Positions 3,139 through 63,200 of a stretch of 64,000 nt of DNA are shown in pieces. The notes under the pieces were generated by a model. That model saw nothing but the letters and a program-made list of their open reading frames with translations, ran no database searches and was not told the DNA's origin. Numbering within the stretch: the stretch's first letter is position 1; every line of letters starts with the position of its first letter. The translations under genes were made by a program, and so were the position numbers. The stretch comes from a virus: positions 1 through 64,000 of IMG/VR virus record IMGVR_UViG_3300045988_102008; one strand, given 5' to 3'.

Positions 3139-3944
3139 TATTAAAAACGACAACCAACGAGTTTTGTTTCATCAGCGTAAGTTTCTATGAAACAATAGCA
3201 GATCCTCGATATTTCTTTGAACAAGATTATGAAGAGATGCCGGAATATGAGGAAGAATCGGATTTTGATTTTGATTCTTATTGCAATAAGTTTATTCCTT
3301 TTGTACAGGAATGGGCGAATGAGGTAAGTGAACGCCTTTACGGATATGGCGTGAATAACATAAAGGTAACATCGGTCGGACATCCGAGAGAATATAATTA
3401 TGGTACTGATTGGATGAACATAGAGGTAGAGTTTTGTGATGAATGGAGGCAAAAGATGTTATCTAACATTGGTAAGATTATCAATGATGATAAATGCAAG
3501 AAGTATGCGGAGGCTAATTATAGGTCGGTATCAGGATACATCTTTTTAGGGCCTGAAGATTTAAAGGAATTTGAAAAGGAAATAATAGAAAGAAAGTCGG
3601 ATTCTGGATATGATGTAACAGTATTATTAAATATGTATCTAACTTTGGCTTTTGTAAAAGAATTTGGATTTAAAGCCGGAGAAGCGTGGAGTGAAATAAC
3701 AGTACATGCTTACGAATGTTTATCATATTCTGATTTTGCAACAACAGAGATGCTTATACCGGAAGGTTCAGAGCATTTATTCAAAGACATTTACACGGCA
3801 AAGGCCGACGAATTATATCATCATGTCCTGGATAAATTCGGATGGGCGTGGCGTGATCCGAAATATAAATCGGAAACAGAATTATGCGCGATGTTAAAGT
3901 GGGCAAAAGAGAAAGGCTTAACCATTGAAGAGTTAAGTATTTAA
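3135..3944 (+). CDS. Hypothetical acidic protein (269 aa)
   Basis: ATGA overlap with the upstream ORF. Long ORF with no competing frame. Confidence 0.6.
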   Translation: MILKTTTNEFCFISVSFYETIADPRYFFEQDYEEMPEYEEESDFDFDSYCNKFIPFVQEWANEVSERLYGYGVNNIKVTSVGHPREYNYGTDWMNIEVEFCDEWRQKMLSNIGKIINDDKCKKYAEANYRSVSGYIFLGPEDLKEFEKEIIERKSDSGYDVTVLLNMYLTLAFVKEFGFKAGEAWSEITVHAYECLSYSDFATTEMLIPEGSEHLFKDIYTAKADELYHHVLDKFGWAWRDPKYKSETELCAMLKWAKEKGLTIEELSI

Positions 3945-5615: not shown

Positions 5616-6003
5616 ATTAGATAAAGTGGTTAAGATCCTAAAAGAAAAAGGATTTATTGTGTATAAGAAAGGCGGGAAAGAGCCAGGTGTGTTTTATGCT
5701 AAAGAAGGCGACAGTCGAATAGGGTTCGTTTATCCAAACAACGGATATATATACGACAGGATAAAAATATGGTCTTTTTCAAGGGTGTATAAACCGCATA
5801 AGAAAACAGGGTCTTCGTGTTTAATGTGTGTCAGCGACGAATTTACTATAGAGAATGCGATTAAGAACATAGAGGATAGACTGTGGGTAAATTACATAAA
5901 AGACGGTAACAGAAAACGACCAGAAGAATATAAAAATATAAGAGAATTTGTTGGTAGCTTCACTAAATTCTACAGCTCTGTAGAATTAGTTGAGGTTAAG
6001 TAG
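5593..6003 (+). CDS. Hypothetical protein
   Basis: ATG start, 136 aa. Confidence 0.55.
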   Translation: MKMNVENKLDKVVKILKEKGFIVYKKGGKEPGVFYAKEGDSRIGFVYPNNGYIYDRIKIWSFSRVYKPHKKTGSSCLMCVSDEFTIENAIKNIEDRLWVNYIKDGNRKRPEEYKNIREFVGSFTKFYSSVELVEVK

Positions 6004-6080
6004 TTTACATGCGAGTTAGTTGCCGGCACTGGTCTGTGAAGATAGGTGTCGTTTTTTTTATTCAAGAAAGGAGAACAAAG

Positions 6081-6332
6081 ATGGAGAAAAGAGACAGGGA
6101 GATGCCTTACGAGGTAGTCATACAGGAAAGAAAAAGAGTGGATTTATACGGTAACGTAGTGTATTATATCTACTGGTTTGATAAATATGGGAACGATATT
6201 ACAAACGAATGGAAATTCTGGAGCAAGGGTCCGAAAAAGAAATACGATAGAGTTAATCGTTATCTAACGGATAGTTGGATAAAGGAATACTGTAAGAACA
6301 ACAATTTAAAAATAAGTAGAATAAAGGAATGA
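6081..6332 (+). CDS. Hypothetical protein (ATG at 6081 preferred over the track start at 6009)
   Basis: An SD-like aaaggagaacaaag lies immediately upstream of ATG 6081. Confidence 0.5.
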   Translation: MEKRDREMPYEVVIQERKRVDLYGNVVYYIYWFDKYGNDITNEWKFWSKGPKKKYDRVNRYLTDSWIKEYCKNNNLKISRIKE

Positions 6333-6419
6333 AGCCAGGAAAGTATGTTATGGTAACAAACGAGCGTGGCGCCTTGGATGTTATAAAAGAAAAATTTGAC
6401 AACATAAATATAGTGGAAT

Positions 6420-6779
6420 ATGGATCTGAATGAATTGTACAAAGAAATAGAAAAAGCAGAGGTTGATCTGAATGCAAAAAGATTAAAGTACATCAAAGAG
6501 GCATTAGCGGAGAACGGTGGAAGTATAAAGCTAAAATTTAAAGAATGGCGAGAAGCTAATAATACGTTTGACTTTGATGATCAGTTTCCGGTGATAATAG
6601 AAATTAATGGGATTCCTATGTTTTTAACGGAGGTGTATGTCAAAAAAAACGATTTTCGTATAGTTCTGCTGGATTATGATGATATGACTTTAGGTGATTA
6701 TGATAATACAGGGGAAAATGAACAGGTTGCTTATTTTATTAACTATTGTTTAAATCAAGACAAAGATGGGAAAGAGTAG
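6420..6779 (+). CDS. Hypothetical protein
   Basis: ATG start, 119 aa. Confidence 0.5.
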   Translation: MDLNELYKEIEKAEVDLNAKRLKYIKEALAENGGSIKLKFKEWREANNTFDFDDQFPVIIEINGIPMFLTEVYVKKNDFRIVLLDYDDMTLGDYDNTGENEQVAYFINYCLNQDKDGKE

Positions 6780-6954
6780 AAAAGATTATGAGAAGTTTCT
6801 TAACTCAATATCTCCAGATAGAGACGATGAGGCATGGATCATTGGAGGAAAGAACAGGTATTGCGGTAGAGAGAATTATGGCACTATGATCAAAAGGTAT
6901 GATCCTATTGGTTTTAATGTAGGGTACAGAGAGTGGGCAGAACAGCCAGAGTAA
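6766..6954 (+). CDS. Hypothetical small protein
   Basis: ATG start, 62 aa. Confidence 0.4.
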   Translation: MGKSRKDYEKFLNSISPDRDDEAWIIGGKNRYCGRENYGTMIKRYDPIGFNVGYREWAEQPE

Positions 6955-7056
6955 GGTGGCGCCTGCCCTGCCATGAGGTCGGCCTGGCTGTCTGTGGCCA
7001 GGACCGTATATTAGTCAGATAGTGAACGACGAAAACAATACAAATGTTTGTTAATT

Positions 7057-16722: not shown

Positions 16723-17064
16723 AAGGATTACAATGATAACATCAAGGTGATTATACACCACTTTACGCAAAAAAGCGTAAAACAATATACATTTGTATGA
16801 AACTTCATACTGGGTATCACCAATACCCTCTACCGGTTGCTCGAAAGTGAGATCACCGGATTCTTTTACTAAACAAAACGTTTTTGATTTTACTTACCCA
16901 ACGAATATTTTTTTTAGGGTAAAACCTTATATCAAAGACCTCTTTTACCCAACCGTCTTGTCCGAAACAAGGGACTATATGATTCGATTGAGTAAAACAA
17001 AGTTAGAGAAGAAAAATATGAAATTAAATAACATCCGTATGTTTTATAACATAGCCAGTATAAA

Positions 17065-32840: not shown

Positions 32841-33379
32841 ATACAATGGCCCAAGGTTACACTTGGGCCTAATTGAAGAAGCAAAAGCAGCATTCATAGA
32901 TTTCCTGCCGGCAGGGACAGTGATTTTAAGTGCTTTACTAATTACGATATTTTTAACATGGATTTTGGACAAGATTTAGAACCAGAAGAACTGACCAAGC
33001 ATTATGATCGGTGTTATAACCCCAAATAGTATTAACCCAATATAATTCTATTATAAAAGTTTAATACATCTCTTTCAGAGATCGGGTTATTAGCCTAAGC
33101 CTTGAAACAGAGGCTACGTTATTTGAGAATAAATAGTTACCAAGGAATGTTTATCCAAGTTTCTTGCTCTAAGGATGGTGATTAAACAGGAGTAGTGTAT
33201 TTGACGAAACAGTGTTGCCATTATATAAAACCTCTTATAACATTGGCGATGGGTACTTACAGGAGAAATCCTGACTTATCCCTAACGGGATTTACATCTA
33301 CCAAGGAGACCGGAAGGTCTCCGAGGGGATGTATTAAAACATATGAATAGCTTTAAATATATTTAATAGAATATGAGAT

Positions 33380-51607: not shown

Positions 51608-51823
51608 TTATTTTGGCAAAATATTCATATAACACGGCACATCTACTACGTCTCTTCTACGGATCCGCTTATCAAAATAAGAAACCATATAAGTATTTTT
51701 ACCTTCGTGATCAGGTCTGGGATCGAAACATTCAAAAACGAATCTTGTTCTACCTTCAAGATGACCAAACATGAAAACAAATTCGCCACCGTATCTTTTA
51801 TTAGCCAATTCTTCTACGGTCAT
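51608..51823 (-). CDS. Hypothetical small protein
   Basis: ATG start. ATGA overlap with the upstream gene. Confidence 0.45.
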   Translation of the reverse strand: MTVEELANKRYGGEFVFMFGHLEGRTRFVFECFDPRPDHEGKNTYMVSYFDKRIRRRDVVDVPCYMNILPK

Positions 51824-56032: not shown

Positions 56033-58291
56033 TTATTTGCATTCTAATTTGTTAAGATCATCCAATTCAGACTTGCTTATGGTCATATCTTGCGTCAAGC
56101 CAGATCTGTTTTGGTATGGAGCGTAATCGGTTTCTACTGTCTTAGCCTTCTGGGTAGAATCGTATTTCACCTCCGATTCGGTCCCTGTCAGATTTTGGTA
56201 GATAGAGCCGGAACTACTTTCGCTTACTTTAGACCATATCTTATTACCTACTCTTATAAAATTATCATAAATACCTTCGGCTGTTATAACACCATCTTGC
56301 TCTACGATATTAGGGCCCGATTTTTCTTTTAACAGATACGGGTGCCTGGTGTAAAAATAGTGTTCAAAATCATTCCCGGCATACGAAGAGTCATACTTCT
56401 CCAAATAAAACAATTCTGATAAAAAAGGGTCGGTACTGGTCATGCTATAATCAAACAACATCAACCTGTCTTTTCCAGATAAAGATAATTCTATTGATTT
56501 CAAAATATCAGGATCATCAGAAATAAGACCCAAAGATGGACCAGGTTTGAAGTCAAGATACTTATAGGCATTATCATATAATTTTGTTTTATGGAGTTTG
56601 TTGTCAAGGTAAGATTGGTATAAATCGAATAAGGATAATGGGTTTTCGCTATCTTGTTTTTTGTTCATGTACCGACTAAATTCCCGATCCACATCCACAT
56701 AAGGGACGCTGGGTACCGCCGGATGCCCAAACGCCAGCCTGGTCATTATCATGTCCTCCGTGTTCTGAGAATCCATAAACGATCTGACGTATTTTTTTAT
56801 AGAATCCATGAGCGTATTATCATCTACGTTCCATACTTTCTCTTTATCCAAAACGCCGTTCTTAAAACAAGATTCAGGATATATTTTAGCGGGGAAGTAA
56901 GTTTGATTGTGCTTAGCCAATGCCGTTGATATTTGATACATATCATTAAGATCATCTTTATTGATCCTTTGATATAAATTATCTTCCACCTTAAGCAATG
57001 AGTGCTTCTCAAATGTTTCTACTGGATCTATATCGGATTCAGAATAAACGATATTCAAATTATCCATATTCTCTGGTAACGATCTAAAATAATAATCTGT
57101 ACTATCACCAAGAACATCATCGATAGAAGATGCCAGCGTAGGAGCATAATTCACATCATTGTGCCTGGCCACATAAATATCAAGATCCAGCATCAAATTA
57201 TCTATCTTAGCCAAAGATTCTTCTGTGCCATCATAAGCCTCTGACGCCCCTATTATATCTATGCCAAACCACATACAAGCCTCTTCTATATCCCATATCA
57301 TGCTTCTTAAATCAGATTCGGTGTCAGCATTAACCCTATTTAAATAAGCTGATATACGAGCTCTTAGAAATTCTATTTTACCGGGATTATAATAAGACAG
57401 GTCTTGTAGCTTAGATAAAGACCTTTTCTTTCCTTCTACCACATCATCGCCTTCTATGTTTATTACCGGCATTTTTTTCATAGATGAAAACTCATCAAAC
57501 ATAGATTCAGCAAATTTTTTATCAGAAACAAATTTCTCGACCAGCTCAGGATACAGGTTCCTCAACGATTCAAAAGCAGATGAAAATTCAGAAAAGTTTT
57601 TTATGCCGCCTACTGTTTTGCACATAGCCCAATAAAGCTCAGAAGGATTATATGGTACTTTTTTACCAAATTGGTTAAACACTCCCTCCTTGTAAACAAT
57701 AGGACCATACTGATAGCCAACAGACATAAAATAATTATCCTTTTCCCTATCATGTTCGTTAATAGAACAATCTATTAACTTTCTCATGGAAGTCGAAACC
57801 TCATTTAAAACAGAAGGATCGGATAAGATACGACTTATCTCTGTTTCATCATACAAACCGGATCTCCTTAATTTCTGCTCATTCAGTATCAAACTGCCAT
57901 CTACATAAAAATCGAAGAGGATAGCATTAGACAATGAAGACGCATTGAAAAAATAATGAGTAGACAAAAGGAAATCCCTTACATCCTTAATGTCCTGAGC
58001 CGTTAAAGGATCAGCAAAATAAGTCTGACGCTTCATATACGACAGCACGTCTTCTAAAAGAGGTTCGCCATTGGGATCGGTATTAAACATCTCCCCTGGA
58101 GCCGGGTTATTCCAATGACCGTAATACGACAAAAAACCAGGAGTGTAAGCCTTAGCCCATACCTGAAGAGCCCGCTCACTGTTTCCTAATACCTTTAAAG
58201 CACTTTCGTAAAGAACGGAAGGCTCCCCGTTAGGAGCCTCAACCCGTTCTATTTTATTTTCCTTCTTTTCTATCTGACATTTGACACCCAT
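56033..58291 (-). CDS. Large hypothetical protein (752 aa), putative virion protein
   Basis: Uninterrupted ORF with an ATG start. No recognisable motifs. Confidence 0.75.
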   Translation of the reverse strand: MGVKCQIEKKENKIERVEAPNGEPSVLYESALKVLGNSERALQVWAKAYTPGFLSYYGHWNNPAPGEMFNTDPNGEPLLEDVLSYMKRQTYFADPLTAQDIKDVRDFLLSTHYFFNASSLSNAILFDFYVDGSLILNEQKLRRSGLYDETEISRILSDPSVLNEVSTSMRKLIDCSINEHDREKDNYFMSVGYQYGPIVYKEGVFNQFGKKVPYNPSELYWAMCKTVGGIKNFSEFSSAFESLRNLYPELVEKFVSDKKFAESMFDEFSSMKKMPVINIEGDDVVEGKKRSLSKLQDLSYYNPGKIEFLRARISAYLNRVNADTESDLRSMIWDIEEACMWFGIDIIGASEAYDGTEESLAKIDNLMLDLDIYVARHNDVNYAPTLASSIDDVLGDSTDYYFRSLPENMDNLNIVYSESDIDPVETFEKHSLLKVEDNLYQRINKDDLNDMYQISTALAKHNQTYFPAKIYPESCFKNGVLDKEKVWNVDDNTLMDSIKKYVRSFMDSQNTEDMIMTRLAFGHPAVPSVPYVDVDREFSRYMNKKQDSENPLSLFDLYQSYLDNKLHKTKLYDNAYKYLDFKPGPSLGLISDDPDILKSIELSLSGKDRLMLFDYSMTSTDPFLSELFYLEKYDSSYAGNDFEHYFYTRHPYLLKEKSGPNIVEQDGVITAEGIYDNFIRVGNKIWSKVSESSSGSIYQNLTGTESEVKYDSTQKAKTVETDYAPYQNRSGLTQDMTISKSELDDLNKLECK

Positions 58292-58357
58292 GTTATGAAA
58301 AATATTAAATTCAATAAAATCTATTACATTTCTTTATAAGTTTCGGAATGTACCTTC

Positions 58358-59539
58358 TTAACAAAATACATTCGTAATCCTTACCGGGTTAAACAATAAC
58401 CCTCTATCGATTATCCTACGAATTGATTCACAAGAATCACCGACTACTTTTCTCATAATGTTTAATGCTCCATTTACATCGGCATTAATGAGCTTTCCTG
58501 TAGAGGATTGAAATAATCCTCGTTTTCTCCTTTTTCCTAAATAGTTTTCATGTTTTCCTATCTTCTCAAATGCAAGAGAATCACATTTTGAAGTATATGA
58601 TTCTTCATTGATAACTATTTCAATACCAGCTAATTCACATTTGTATTCTAAGTAACTAACTAATCTCGCAAAAGGGATTTGGGTAAACTTTTGGTTATTC
58701 TTTTTACCTATATTTACATTTTGTTTCCATCCCTTGTTATAGCCTACAACTAATTTTGTTATCTTGGAATCGATAAGTAAATCAACTATCTTTCTACTGA
58801 TTTTATGAAAGACATCTTCTATGTACTGTTCTCTATCATAATATAATTTCTTCATTCGTTTCGTTATCCCTTTTATCTTTTGTAAATCCTTGATACTATT
58901 TAATTTAGCAAGTATTTTATTAAATAATTGATTGTATGATTTAACAAATTTACCGCTAAATAGAACAGTAAAATATTCACTAACTAATGTTACAAGATTG
59001 TTTATTCCTAAATCAATGGAAGCTATTTTCTCTTCTCTACCTTTAGACACTTCAGTATCTTTTACCTCATAAATGATTTCTATCTTATATCCACACGCTA
59101 ACGGTTTTATTCTAATCTGCTTGAAATCTTTTATCAAATCAGAATACTTCTCATATTGAGGAATGGGTATTGAAATATCTTTTGATAGGATTATTTTCCC
59201 ATCTTTTATTTTGCAACTCTGGCTCGTGTAATACAAATTGAACTCAGAACCTCTCTTTTTGTAATTTGGAAGACCTGGTTTTTCTTTGTATTTATTATGA
59301 TTTTTCTTATAATCTTGGACAGATTTGTAGTAACCTTTAATGTTTTTATCAAGAATACGAAGAACTTGTTGTGAACATTGCGCCTTTAATAATCTATAAT
59401 TAATATCTCCATCCAAGTTCTTAGTATTCTTCATGATAGTATCAAGTTCAAAATAAGATAACCACTTATCTTCTTTAGAAAGTGTTTCTCTGAAAATATA
59501 TAACGCCTGATTGTACAAGTTATTGCTAATCTTGCACAA
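58358..59539 (-). CDS. tnpB: TnpB-like RuvC-fold nuclease (IS200/IS605 OrfB family), zinc finger absent
   Basis: RuvC-I IASIDLGINN, RuvC-II IVINEESYTSK, RuvC-III LINADVNGALNIMRKV. N-terminal QQVLRILDKNIKGYY region. TTG start only. No CxxC...CxxC zinc finger. Confidence 0.7.
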   Translation of the reverse strand: MCKISNNLYNQALYIFRETLSKEDKWLSYFELDTIMKNTKNLDGDINYRLLKAQCSQQVLRILDKNIKGYYKSVQDYKKNHNKYKEKPGLPNYKKRGSEFNLYYTSQSCKIKDGKIILSKDISIPIPQYEKYSDLIKDFKQIRIKPLACGYKIEIIYEVKDTEVSKGREEKIASIDLGINNLVTLVSEYFTVLFSGKFVKSYNQLFNKILAKLNSIKDLQKIKGITKRMKKLYYDREQYIEDVFHKISRKIVDLLIDSKITKLVVGYNKGWKQNVNIGKKNNQKFTQIPFARLVSYLEYKCELAGIEIVINEESYTSKCDSLAFEKIGKHENYLGKRRKRGLFQSSTGKLINADVNGALNIMRKVVGDSCESIRRIIDRGLLFNPVRITNVFC

Positions 59540-59722
59540 AGATGATATATTTTCATTCTGACCTATGTTGAACTTATATACTAATCTTATGATTTTTAAT
59601 ACATTAAATGCTGTTTACAAATCATACATCTAAGATACGAATTACATTTGTATTACAGAATAGAATCTATTATTTTTAATGTTATTTTGCACCATAGTGA
59701 TAAATATTTTAGGCAAAGTTAA

Positions 59723-60253
59723 TTATAAAACCGACTTATACAATGACGGATCCCAAACTCCTTCTATATAAATCTCTGGAAAACTCAAACTGCCATCACG
59801 AAGAGTGGTAACTTTCAAACTGGGAATGTTAAGAACAGTGCTAACATCACTAAACTCACCATTCAACTTAATAGCATTTCCACTATTATCAGCTTCATAA
59901 TAATAATAACAATAATTTTCATTAAGACTCGGATCATATTCGTACCAATATGTTAGATCTTGCATATGGTCTTCTATATTACCAATTTTATTTCCACCTA
60001 ATATAAAAATACCATTATTGCTATGATGATAAACCGTAGATTCATAATTACCATAATTCCAGTCACTATTAAACACTATATCACTGACATCGGAATCATG
60101 ATCTTTTAATACAGGCCCTATATGTATATGGATTTTATTAAACTGACATACATAAGGTCTTTTTCCTCCAAGCCTTTTTATATCTTCATTGGATAACTTA
60201 TTATAACATCCTCCCACAAAATTATCCGCAGCATTAAAAAATCTCCTTCTCAT
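59723..60253 (-). CDS. Hypothetical protein (ATG at 60253)
   Basis: The ATG lies 2 nt after the upstream stop. The track start at 60262 is GTG. Confidence 0.5.
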   Translation of the reverse strand: MRRRFFNAADNFVGGCYNKLSNEDIKRLGGKRPYVCQFNKIHIHIGPVLKDHDSDVSDIVFNSDWNYGNYESTVYHHSNNGIFILGGNKIGNIEDHMQDLTYWYEYDPSLNENYCYYYYEADNSGNAIKLNGEFSDVSTVLNIPSLKVTTLRDGSLSFPEIYIEGVWDPSLYKSVL

Positions 60254-60255
60254 AC

Positions 60256-63200
60256 TCAACACTCCTTGTTTAACTCATTTATCGAATCCGAATTATCAGA
60301 ACCTTCTACAAGATTCTTATTCCTATCTATCTCTTCCTGGCTCATGTTACTCATCATATTTTGTATTTTTCTACCAGATTGAGATAAAGAACGGATGAAT
60401 GCGCTGGAACTTATCTTAACTCCAAGATCCGGTTTTGCCCTAAACGCTTCACCGGTACTGATATTATACAAATCATACACACCTGAGTTCATATAGAATT
60501 TATATATCCAGTTTCCACCAGCTTTTTTGTACCCTAATTTGGTTAACTCGACTACACTCATACCAAATTTAATGCCATTACGACCCATTATCTTCTCCGG
60601 TATAGGTTCTACCTTAGCCGGAACAGATGTATATGCTTCATCGCCGCCGTACAGGAAATAAGGGGTTGTCACCCTTGATATGTGAGTAAGCGACTCTTCG
60701 GACATACGAAGCTCATCTTTCTCAGCCTTAGATTCTTTCCTTGGATTGGATATTCTAATAAAAGGATCGTATGTCAAAAAGGTTAAGCCGTATTCTACTT
60801 TATAACCCGACACGCCGTTAAGATCCCTTATAGCCTTAGTCGTATGCGAGTGATTGATGGTGTCTATACCATACCTTGATTCCATATCGGTCATAATACT
60901 ATTAACCTCATCTCCCTCTACATAAACCTCTTCTCCTTCCGGGATAGAGGTTATGCCGGCAGCCCTTCTAAGTAGCCATAAAGTAACTTCAGCAATGTCA
61001 GAGAACTTATCTCCGTTCTTCCTATAGTTATCTACTCTTCCTTCTTCAGATCCAGGTAATTCGACATTTCTTTCAACTTCGACATTTGTTCTGGATTGTC
61101 CTTTGCCTTCTCCATCTCCCTTTTTATCGCCATCTTCCTCAGTGCGTACTGCACCGCCTTCTGCACTTCCTTCTTTTCCATTATTTAAAATATTATCTGA
61201 TTCTGACTCTATAGACTCCACAACAGCATCATACTCTGGAATGCCGCTAAGGAAATCTGCTACGTTATTCAAAAACTCTATTTTTTCCTCGTTTGTCATA
61301 TCAAGGCTTTCCACGGGCCCCCATATGGCGGGCAAGTTGTTTGATTTTATTACAGTAGAAACATCTTCTATAGTTTGGTTGTCCACCGTAGGCAAAACTT
61401 TAGAAACCAAACTATTGATATCAGATTCCATTTTTTCTACTTCCTCTTTTGTGCCATATTCTTTTAGGGTATCCATGCCATTGACTCTAAGAGAATAATT
61501 CAAAGCCTTGCTTGGAACAAAATTAATATATTTCAAAAAGTTTTTCAACTCTGATATAATTTGTTCGTCAGATCTTGGCCCAACATAATCCTCGACTACC
61601 TGATCTGTTTGAGAACGAAGCCAAGAAACGTATTCTTCTAAAGTCTTACCACCTTTACCGGAAGGAGTGGATATTTTATCACCTACTGTTCCTTTAGGTT
61701 CTAATCCCATTTCCTCCTTAAGACTTTTAGGATTACCTCTCTCACGAAGAAATCTCAAATCACCTCCTACAATCTTCCTTGCTATAAAATCAAAAATATT
61801 AGCATAAGGCGGCAATCCCTCTTTTTCTATATGAGATTCTATTTCGTTTAACATAAGAGAGAAGTTTTTCCTGGAGGTACGCTTCTTGCCAGGTAAAGAC
61901 TGCGCATCTTGTGCCGCAGGAGCCGGCTGAGCTAATGGCGCCGGCTGAGTCTCCCGGGCAGCCCCTTCCTCTGGCATTTCCTCTTCATAAACTTCCACAT
62001 CTTCTACCTTAGAAGTAACGGTCTTACCCTCATCAGAGAAAGGAAGATCATCCTCTATAAGCGATTTAGGCCTGGAAGATGATTTGCCAAACTGAATCCT
62101 GATCTTAGGAGCGACAAACATCTCACCTTCGAAATCTATTCCAGATTCTACTTCAGACGTCACAATGTCTTTCACGCTCCTACTTCCATCTTCTACCCAC
62201 TTAACAACATCAGGAACCGTAGATAATTTTTCTATAGCCTCACGAGCTTTTCTAAGCCCTGAAATAGGATTCAAATACGATACTTGATACGAAGCCGGAT
62301 CAAGACCTAACTTGGTTAGATACGCATTAAGATCTTGTATGTCATCTTGACCCATCTGTAGCAATTCAGAATCACCAGATTCAAGCAGCATATCTATAAA
62401 AGACATCCATTTCTGCCCTTCCTCTGATTCTACAGAACGTAGGCTAACTGGGAAAAGATAATTAAGACCGTTTTTACCTTTGATGACGACTACCGGAACT
62501 CTTACATTTTTGTAATTATTCCCCTTGTCATTTAATATAGAATAAGCAAATGGGAAGCCTGTGTATTTAGATCCGTTCTTAAGCATGACTTTGCCATTTA
62601 ATACATATCCAACATCAGATACTTTTTCAGCACCTTTTTCGGTAATAGGGAGATTTTCTACCTGACCATATCCTTGACCGTTCACCTTCATGTTAAACAC
62701 CGGTCTTCCGGGAAGGGTCTGGGCAACAACATGCGTGCCGACGCCGATGGTAGCCGACCGGCCGGCGTCCTTCTTCCACTTGTTAAAAGCCGTTCTTCTT
62801 ATTTTACTTATACCATCTATGCCTCCTGTATCAGCTTTTACAACAGAAACGAATCTGTTCCCACTCATGACCTTGATAACCATATTGGACACCAGTTTAT
62901 TCTCAGCAGATTCTATTCTTTTTTTATCGCCGGACTGAACAGCATCATTGTATTCGGCAAAAAGAGACTGATTATAAGTATCATTTACATCTATTTCGAG
63001 ATTAACCTTATCTCCTTTTTTCAAAGAAGATAATGCTTCCTGATCTATTTTATCTACCTCATTCTCTCCGAATCCGACACCCGTTCTGTACGGAACCAAT
63101 TCATCTGAATCAAGACGCTTATAAACCAAAGAATAGGAATTACCCACGTCCTGAATAGACACGTCTGTGTAACGGTTAAGAACACGAGCCGATTCTTTGT

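Follow-up and report, generated by a model that had tools for sequence, protein, structure and literature searches.

The window analysed here is a 64,000-nt stretch of viral DNA, positions 1 to 64,000 of IMG/VR record IMGVR_UViG_3300045988_102008. On its minus strand, between an open reading frame (ORF) of 179 amino acids (aa) and a phage gene for a 752-aa protein, lies a 1402-bp insert that is very probably a non-autonomous, transposase-less derivative of the IS607 family of insertion sequences (IS), belonging to epsilon crAss-like phages and carrying a tnpB gene and a predicted omega-RNA (reRNA). The tnpB gene stands in the ORF listing as a 393-aa frame with a TTG start (58358..59539, minus strand). 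The original prediction, made from the letters of this stretch, had taken it for a TnpB-like nuclease without zinc finger that was either the relic of a decaying IS or a domesticated RNA-guided nuclease, and had placed it between two large ORFs. That placement has to be amended, as the upstream neighbour is the 179-aa ORF and the 1246-aa ORF lies beyond it on the upstream side of the element. The two explanations offered earlier are both replaced by an ordinary selfish element of an active lineage.

Insertion at an AT dinucleotide and IS607 relatives

The boundaries of the element follow from comparison with crAssE-Sib (OR575929, 151 kb, human gut), which is ~91% identical, the nearest phage in the databases and the only close one; it belongs to the epsilon crAss-like phages (PMC11054128). 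Across the insertion point its match is ~1.36 kb shorter than the query and the element is absent there, a small ORF being followed directly by the 752-aa gene. The empty site reads ...TTTATCACT-AT-GGGTGTCAAATG (also ...TCACT-AT-GGGTGTC in crAssE-Sib, or TCACT-ATGGGTGTC... from TCACT onward) and the filled site of the window reads ...TTTATCACT-AT-(GGTGCAAAAT ... TTTTTCATAAC)-AT-GGGTGTCAAATG, giving the exact junctions ...CACT-AT-(1402 bp)-AT-GGGTG. The clean empty site that the earlier reading had proposed to look for in relatives therefore exists, and it marks the element as a mobile insertion.

A second site, empty in the window (51822-51823) and in crAssE-Sib, reads GGGGACAGATT-AT-GACCGTAG. 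It is filled by the same TnpB-only element in nine phage contigs (L017-L025; L numbers denote the sequences compared), with the same AT rule, which a third empty/filled pair obeys too. In all three comparisons the dinucleotide is present at both junctions and once in the empty site. A repeat analysis of the element region found no terminal inverted repeats. A target duplication of ~20 nt was considered and set aside in favour of the 2-bp core: the native upstream sequence AAATATTTATCACT-ATGG resembles the right end AATATTTTTCATAAC-ATGG at this locus, and other sites have no such resemblance. The first five nucleotides of the left end (variants GGTGC, AATGT) were likewise compared with the right flank; they are alike at two loci and patternless at 10 further sites, and the variants follow element lineages, not flanks.

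Close relatives of the element, with 60-97% identity, are found in ~150-kb phage contigs at no fewer than 41 different sites. One of these TnpBs, 81% identical to that of the window (P0056, on ~150-kb contigs), directly follows a 201-aa ORF and overlaps it. This ORF reaches 171.9 bits (cut-off 110) against the NCBIfam profile 'IS607 family transposase' (NF033518) and has a Pfam Resolvase domain. Full units of this kind are found in at least seven different genomic contexts. The 79 copies in the viral collection comprise 6 with the transposase gene, 5 with tnpA remnants and 68 that are TnpB-only. By tblastn, neither a Y1 nor a serine transposase is encoded anywhere in the 64-kb window, in agreement with the earlier remark that no Y1 TnpA is adjacent, and no second copy of the element was found in it. 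Since the relatives carry an IS607 serine transposase, neither a Y1 TnpA nor terminal hairpins are to be expected, and the lack of tnpA here together with its presence in full-length relatives makes the window copy a non-autonomous derivative. An ordinary recent insertion, which the original prediction had set against its own proposal, is thus essentially what is found, except that the family is IS607 and not IS200/IS605, and that tnpA is met only in relatives.

TnpB is also common in IS200/IS605 elements, which move by single-strand 'peel and paste' with a Y1 transposase, and splicing by an IStron (a transposon combined with a group I intron) would be useful inside an operon. Neither assignment is credible to any real extent. 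The transposase of the relatives is of the serine (resolvase) type and not Y1, and the dinucleotide at both junctions fits a serine-recombinase crossover, whereas IS200/IS605 elements use a Y1/HUH enzyme and insert 3' of a tetra- or pentanucleotide without duplication. Against an IStron, no Rfam group I intron match was obtained at E<=5, the left end is just 103 nt long, and the element sits between ORFs, interrupting none.

The IS607 assignment can be set beside the members with a characterised TnpB (ISXfa1 of Xylella, CboIStron with CboTnpB of Clostridium botulinum, and ISFba1). In these, as in our full-length relatives, the serine transposase gene lies upstream of tnpB and overlaps it. The present element shares with them the lack of terminal inverted repeats, the identical dinucleotide at both junctions, a target motif that differs from the right end at position -3, a (here predicted) omega-RNA overlapping the 3' end of tnpB, and many TnpB-only derivatives. 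It differs from them in its AT core and (A)TAT target, where they have a GG core and target-adjacent motifs (TAMs) TGGG, GGG and AGGAG, and in having no zinc finger, no intron, an RNA other than RAGATH-18 and a home in phage genomes. The TnpB of ISDra2, from the IS200/IS605 family, is alike in fold (Foldseek 8h1j, 8exa) and in its logic of an RNA-guided nuclease protecting its transposon, but it goes with a Y1 transposase, single-strand transposition and a TAM wholly in the left flank, and it retains the canonical glutamate and the zinc finger.

Other forms of the lineage were met along the way. Contigs L002-L004 (6001-7287) carry a chimeric 428-aa ORF (P0109), oriented against its neighbours. 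Its first ~130 residues come from the N-terminus of the serine transposase and run in frame into ~300 residues from the C-terminus of TnpB; it is a deletion derivative. The closest bacterial homologues, 57% identical, belong to Prevotellaceae (Prevotella sp., Hallella absiana and Hallella mizrahii; L106-L108), a possible clue to the hosts that these uncultured phages infect.

Table 1. Positions of the element, its parts and its neighbours in the window
Feature	Position	Strand	Remarks
Element insert	58292-59693	-	1402 bp; AT on either side; from comparison with the crAssE-Sib empty site
Left AT core copy	59694..59695	-	Preceded by T at 59696; flank ...TTTATCACT-AT; from the empty site in crAssE-Sib
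Left end (LE)	59591..59693	-	103 bp; begins GGTGCAAAATAACATTAAAAATAAT; similarity to copies at other sites starts here
Subterminal motif AATAGATTCTATT in LE	59659-59677	-	Direct repeat D3, also found in the right end
tnpB frame	58358..59590	-	410 codons + stop; codon 1 ATA (59588-59590); first standard start TTG at 59539
RuvC-I Asp193 (SIDLG)	59012..59014	-	Invariant in 17 homologues
Glu329-Glu330 (NEESYTSKC), proposed alternative RuvC-II glutamate	58601..58606	-	E330 invariant, E329 nearly so, in 17 homologues
RuvC-III Asp371 (NADVNG, NADxN type)	58478..58480	-	Invariant in 17 homologues
Predicted omega-RNA (reRNA) scaffold	58290..58529	-	~240 nt; ends ...CAUAAC-AU; from covariation
Main stem, 15 pairs across the stop codon	58336..58384	-	58366-58384 pairs with 58336-58353
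Right-end terminal segment ...AAATGTAATAGATTTTATTGAATTTAATATTTTTCATAAC	58292..58335	-	Last base C at 58292; conserved at 41 distinct right flanks
Right AT core copy	58290..58291	-	Doubles as the AT of the 752-aa gene's ATG
Putative flank-derived guide region GGGTGTCAAATGTCAGATAG	58270..58289	-	Codons 1-7 of the 752-aa gene; placed by analogy with ISXfa1 and CboTnpB
752-aa phage gene, downstream	56033..58291	-	Start codon abuts the element; crAssE-Sib orthologue without insertion
179-aa phage ORF, upstream	59723..60262	-	From the ORF listing

The TnpB protein, its active site and its start codon

By its sequence the encoded protein is a TnpB, a member of the OMEGA family of RNA-guided nucleases, with predicted nuclease activity, as the earlier reading had it. 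It matches Pfam OrfB_IS605 at 1.2e-19 and Cas12f1-like_TNB at 1.2e-12, and NCBIfam guided_TnpB (NF040570) with 155.4 bits (cut-off 100) over profile positions 8-389 of 389. Sequence searches of the PDB, one with this single protein and one with a profile of 17 sequences, returned only a designed nuclease and a dCas12f with weak E-values, and the link to TnpB and Cas12f structures came from a fold search. The AlphaFold model, built on 17 homologues (mean pLDDT 80), was matched by Foldseek to Cas12f, the IS607 TnpB of ISFba1 (8iaz), the ISDra2 TnpB (8h1j, 8exa) and Fanzor2. With a type V, Cas12f-like reading in mind, a CRISPR repeat array was looked for in 58250-59740, and none was found.

All three residues of the RuvC triad are present (D193, E329/E330 and D371), as had been claimed, although the glutamate of NEESYTSK does not stand at the canonical RuvC-II position, which is taken by Gly283 (LVVGYN) here and lies in IFIEDLN in a canonical TnpB of a related phage (L024). 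Glu329 and Glu330 are conserved and precede Cys336 by 6-7 residues, and from motif alignment and the literature we propose that they correspond to the published 'alternative E' or RIIr-type glutamate. In ISFba1, E290 stands 81 residues before D371 (PMC11061315), a spacing closer to the 88 residues of Gly283 here than to the 41 of E330. Among TnpB clades with a rearranged RuvC-II, the largest has the glutamate replaced by glycine, and the alternative-glutamate arrangement has been published for active clades (PMC10691335, PMC10711439). In single features of the published descriptions the present protein resembles RIIr-5 (Altae-Tran et al. 2023), in which the canonical Glu is replaced by Gly as in LVVGYN, and the 'Ealt' clade (Yoon et al. 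2023), with its D-hydrophobic-G motif, which is DLG in RuvC-I here. With the rearranged and finger-less clades it shares a Glu 6-7 residues before the first Cys position, a RuvC-III of the NADxN type and the lack of a C4 finger.

The zinc finger is indeed missing, as had been noticed from the sequence alone. The stretch from E330 to D371 offers C336 and H347 as its only possible zinc ligands, so a C4 finger is absent; in the alignment these two residues take the place of the CxxC...CxxC of the canonical phage TnpB in L024. Realignment restored no finger in any of the 17 homologues, in which the CxxC pairs are missing down to 59% identity. The C4 finger has been lost in large branches of TnpB (PMC10691335), and its absence therefore does not exclude membership. 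The loss of the finger and the displacement of the RuvC-II glutamate are traits of the whole clade and have already been described in the literature. The L024 protein itself (5885-7024, 379 aa) represents a second, unrelated TnpB family in related phages, with the canonical IFIEDLN glutamate, an intact CxxC...CxxC finger and a DRD-type RuvC-III, consistent with the report of two dissimilar TnpBs in crAssE-Sib.

The earlier observation that only TTG is available as a start also stands. No in-frame ATG or GTG precedes the TTG back to the stop codon at 59615-59617, where a direct reading of the sequence gives ...KIIRLVYKFNIGQNENISS. Homologues are 409-410 aa long and begin MRLVYKFNIGQNE, which places the family start 17 codons upstream of the TTG; this codon is ATG in all 43 other 410-codon copies and ATA in the window. 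The ATA at codon 1 accounts for the lack of an ATG and also for the sequence ahead of the TTG still reading like TnpB. An alternative genetic code was ruled out, since the relatives have a plain ATG. A scan for sigma-70 promoters gave no enrichment over shuffled sequences, with a consensus unsuited to a Bacteroidota-type host. Because the start codon is ATA, the TnpB output of the window copy is probably low or nil, the rest of the copy being intact.

Does this make the copy a dead or decaying relic, yielding no TnpB and carried passively by the phage? The ATA start and the lack of a transposase gene in the 64-kb window speak for it. However, the 410-codon frame is fully open, the catalytic residues, the RNA structure and both ends are intact, and the only other private codon change among the 44 same-length copies is I246M. 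The dN/dS ratio (nonsynonymous to synonymous substitution) of the window copy is 0.065-0.158 against nine relatives and ~0.155 against the nearest same-site copies; the TnpB family is under purifying selection, and the loss of the finger, which might have suggested decay, is clade-wide under strong selection of this kind. A relic is therefore unlikely. At most, the window copy has been knocked down very recently, or it represents a sequencing error or a minor variant of the population, in a family that as a whole is clearly alive.

Target rule, predicted omega-RNA and alleles in the population

Pooled over all loci, the flanks comprise 41 distinct ones on the right and 26 on the left. The right end closes with C in 41/41 cases, and AT then follows in 40/41. 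On the left, the base ahead of the AT is T in all 26, and the next base out is A in 21 of them. In studied IS607 elements the crossover takes place at a matching dinucleotide, GG, the TAM of the TnpB contains this core (GGG for ISXfa1, TGGG for CboTnpB), the omega-RNA scaffold extends through it, and a right end reading TCGG against a TAM reading TGGG, differing at -3, averts self-cleavage (PMC10711439, PMC10690162). By analogy, the phage lineage appears to repeat this logic as (A)TAT in the target against (A)CAT in the right end. The AT core is a departure from the GG core published for IS607 (PMC13565253, PMC10690162, PMC4058570); a 2026 review describes GG integration as strict and the TAMs as G-rich (PMC13565253), and neither feature is found here, where the core is AT and the target (A)TAT. 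Bacterial relatives (metagenome-assembled genomes of Mycoplasmatota and Eubacteriales) also end ...AAC-AT, and the AT trait is therefore not confined to phages.

At 17 of the 41 sites the core AT also begins the start codon of an ORF downstream (40 codons or longer), and a start lies within 40 nt at 10 more. G follows the core at 24/41 sites, compared with 21% G in the window, and most elements are co-oriented with the neighbouring genes. It is possible that landing on start codons reflects survivorship in a tightly packed genome, or that the right end acts as an upstream region. In four contigs (L046, L059, L060 and L089) the left flank is identical and the right flanks are progressively shorter. 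L005 and L012 make a similar pair, a 142-aa gene adjoining the right end being missing from L012. The endpoints of L059 and L060 resume at an AT of the longer L046 flank, and these look like deletions beside the right end made at AT sites. At the window's own locus in L035 (~3787-3812), the terminus of the right end, TTTTCATAACAT, occurs twice as a 12-bp tandem duplication.

The predicted omega-RNA scaffold takes in the final ~170 nt of tnpB together with its stop codon and the right end. A 7-bp hairpin, GAATGTA/TACATTC, had been noticed at the 3' end and suggested as a possible omega-RNA site. It is real, at 58367-58373 and 58346-58352 instead of 58333-58360, and it forms the tip of a 15-pair stem (helix 7) within a covarying, omega-RNA-like structure. 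In this stem both partners have changed in 8/15 pairs, and pairing holds in 97.7% of cells. The RNAalifold consensus of 15 diverse copies contains 51 pairs, 14 of them with compensatory changes; shuffled alignments reached the observed scores in 0/500 cases on four of five measures and in 2 on the fifth, and shifting the 3' partners drops pairing from 95% to 33-51%. A covariance model of the 3' 159 positions, the kind of search advised earlier, found the same structure 3' of homologues in Hallella, Prevotella, Helicobacter mehlei and others. With these distant bacterial copies included, 30/33 pairs show compensatory changes, in an alignment fitted to the model, which favours the structure. The RNA falls into no Rfam family: between 57800 and 60300, at a permissive threshold (E<=5), only chance-level matches appeared (Phe leader, SNORD50), and RAGATH-18, IS605-orfB motifs and group I introns gave none.

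Two further RNAs turned up elsewhere in the window. The covariance model has a second match at 16760-16864 (minus strand; 35.8 bits, E ~1e-4), with three hairpins. It lies between genes, in a gap of 340 nt without a neighbouring tnpB ORF, and may be an omega-RNA-like remnant that has been orphaned, or else an unrelated small RNA. At 33016-33260 (plus strand) lies an Rfam HEARO RNA, the omega-RNA of IscB, with 95.2 bits (gathering score 83). No IscB/HNH ORF follows it, the next ORFs being of 115 aa and 339 aa, and the guide-RNA gene has the look of an orphan. In a related phage (L017, 6503-7627) an RRXRR+HNH protein is encoded.

The alleles at the window's site were counted by an exact search of the viral collection for the 22-nt right flank, and all figures that follow are among the matches listed. 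At least 10 alleles are filled and at least ~116 (of ~126) are empty. The left flanks of the filled alleles are ...CACT or ...TATT only. The commonest empty allele reads ...TTACA, with A at -3, and is never filled among the matches listed. Among the empty alleles (L186-L304) at least ~70 have T before the ATG and at least ~46 have A, whereas all filled alleles have T. The unfilled state of ...TTACA fits a requirement for T, with the filled alleles stemming from few independent events, and the alleles with A before the ATG could be resistant variants. In ~10 contigs (L204, at 2215-2887, and L212, L223, L234, L238, L258, L259, L268, L280 and L294) at least the first 27 nt of the 752-aa gene (ATGGGTGTCAAATGTCAGATAGAAAAA) are present twice, 650-680 nt apart, flanking a cassette of the 179-aa ORF and the last ~60 nt of the large upstream gene. 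This looks like a cassette exchange or duplication exactly where the guide of the element would match.

A domesticated nuclease or regulator, for example one that represses the 752-aa gene in the manner of TldR or that serves the phage as a fixed weapon against its competitors, has to be weighed at this point. The element is co-oriented within a block of large structural genes, and the putative guide region spans the first codons of the next gene. TldRs, the nuclease-dead, TnpB-like repressors encoded by phages, are likewise phage-borne relatives of TnpB with a guide beside a gene start. In TldR, however, the RuvC residues are lost and the regulatory target is fixed, whereas here the residues are kept and the guide would follow the insertion site. 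The putative guide region equals the target sequence of the empty alleles, and the corresponding segment is different at every insertion site, the same element being found with different flank-derived guides at the 41 or more sites. Moreover, the locus is polymorphic, empty in crAssE-Sib and mostly empty among the matches listed, full copies have a transposase gene, and there is no conserved partner gene. Domestication is accordingly very improbable, though somewhat less so than an IS200/IS605 or IStron origin.

A possible homing cycle and its meaning

With the selfish IS607-type element in mind, one may propose how the locus arose and how it would persist. A full-length copy would have provided a serine transposase in trans, and this enzyme would have recombined the circular element into an AT dinucleotide, as the junctions suggest. 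This AT was presumably part of the T-ATG at the start of the 752-aa gene, and it would have been left on both sides, so that the gene kept its ATG and the right end of the element became its upstream sequence. TnpB, where it is made, would bind an omega-RNA cut from the 3' end of its own transcript, as the characterised IS607 TnpBs do, and the last ~16-20 nt of that RNA would be copied from the flank (GGGTGTCAAATGTCAG...). The complex would then cleave element-free alleles that read (A)TAT followed by sequence matching the guide, whether these arise by excision or reside in a co-infecting phage, and recombinational repair from the occupied genome would copy the element in. The occupied allele would be spared because the right end reads CAT, not TAT. 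For IS607 elements, rescue of the excised transposon by TnpB-mediated homing has been reported (PMC10690162, PMC10711439).

This scheme can be widened into a view of the lineage that we offer as a tentative one, with the odds somewhat against it. A mainly phage-resident IS607 lineage may have exchanged a GG core and G-rich TAM for an AT core and an (A)TAT target, its TnpB and omega-RNA may carry it by homing between co-infecting crAss-like phages, its right end may serve as a portable upstream region that allows landing on a start-codon AT without silencing the gene, and the A-before-ATG alleles may be escape variants. Several points weigh against the reading that we favour. The start codon of the window copy is ATA, and a start at the TTG, codon 18, would cut off the first beta-strand. 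The 64-kb window has no transposase gene, which leaves the present mobility of this copy unproven. The RNA is matched by nothing in Rfam, the IS607-linked RAGATH-18 included. The core is AT here and GG in the literature, and the analogy thus crosses a change of specificity; the T at -3 could come from a preference of the transposase alone; and the TAM, the guide boundaries, the nuclease activity and the homing are all inferred by analogy.

The nearest parallel in phage biology is offered by the free-standing homing endonuclease genes of T-even phages (Seg, Mob), where a selfish nuclease gene is likewise wedged between conserved phage genes and polymorphic. Like these, the element would be expected to spread in co-infection by cutting the empty allele. 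Unlike them, it would recognise its target by an RNA guide and a short motif and not by protein, and it has transposon ends and moves to new sites.

For annotation, the gene is the TnpB of what is very probably a non-autonomous IS607-family element; labels such as virion protein, domesticated nuclease or broken gene would be wrong. Its interest is moderate and lies at the level of the lineage: the AT core, the TAT-type target, the residence in phages and the landing on start codons. The compact, zinc-finger-less nuclease of 410 aa with its predicted TAT-type motif may be of interest to those mining TnpBs for genome editing. The lineage shows that an IS607 element can have an AT core and an A/T-rich target motif, where the characterised members have GG and G-rich TAMs. 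Among the uncultured crAss-like phages of the gut it is abundant and mobile, public data contain filled alleles alongside empty ones, and it would provide a natural system for asking whether RNA-guided nucleases drive homing between phages, as protein homing endonucleases do in the T-even phages.

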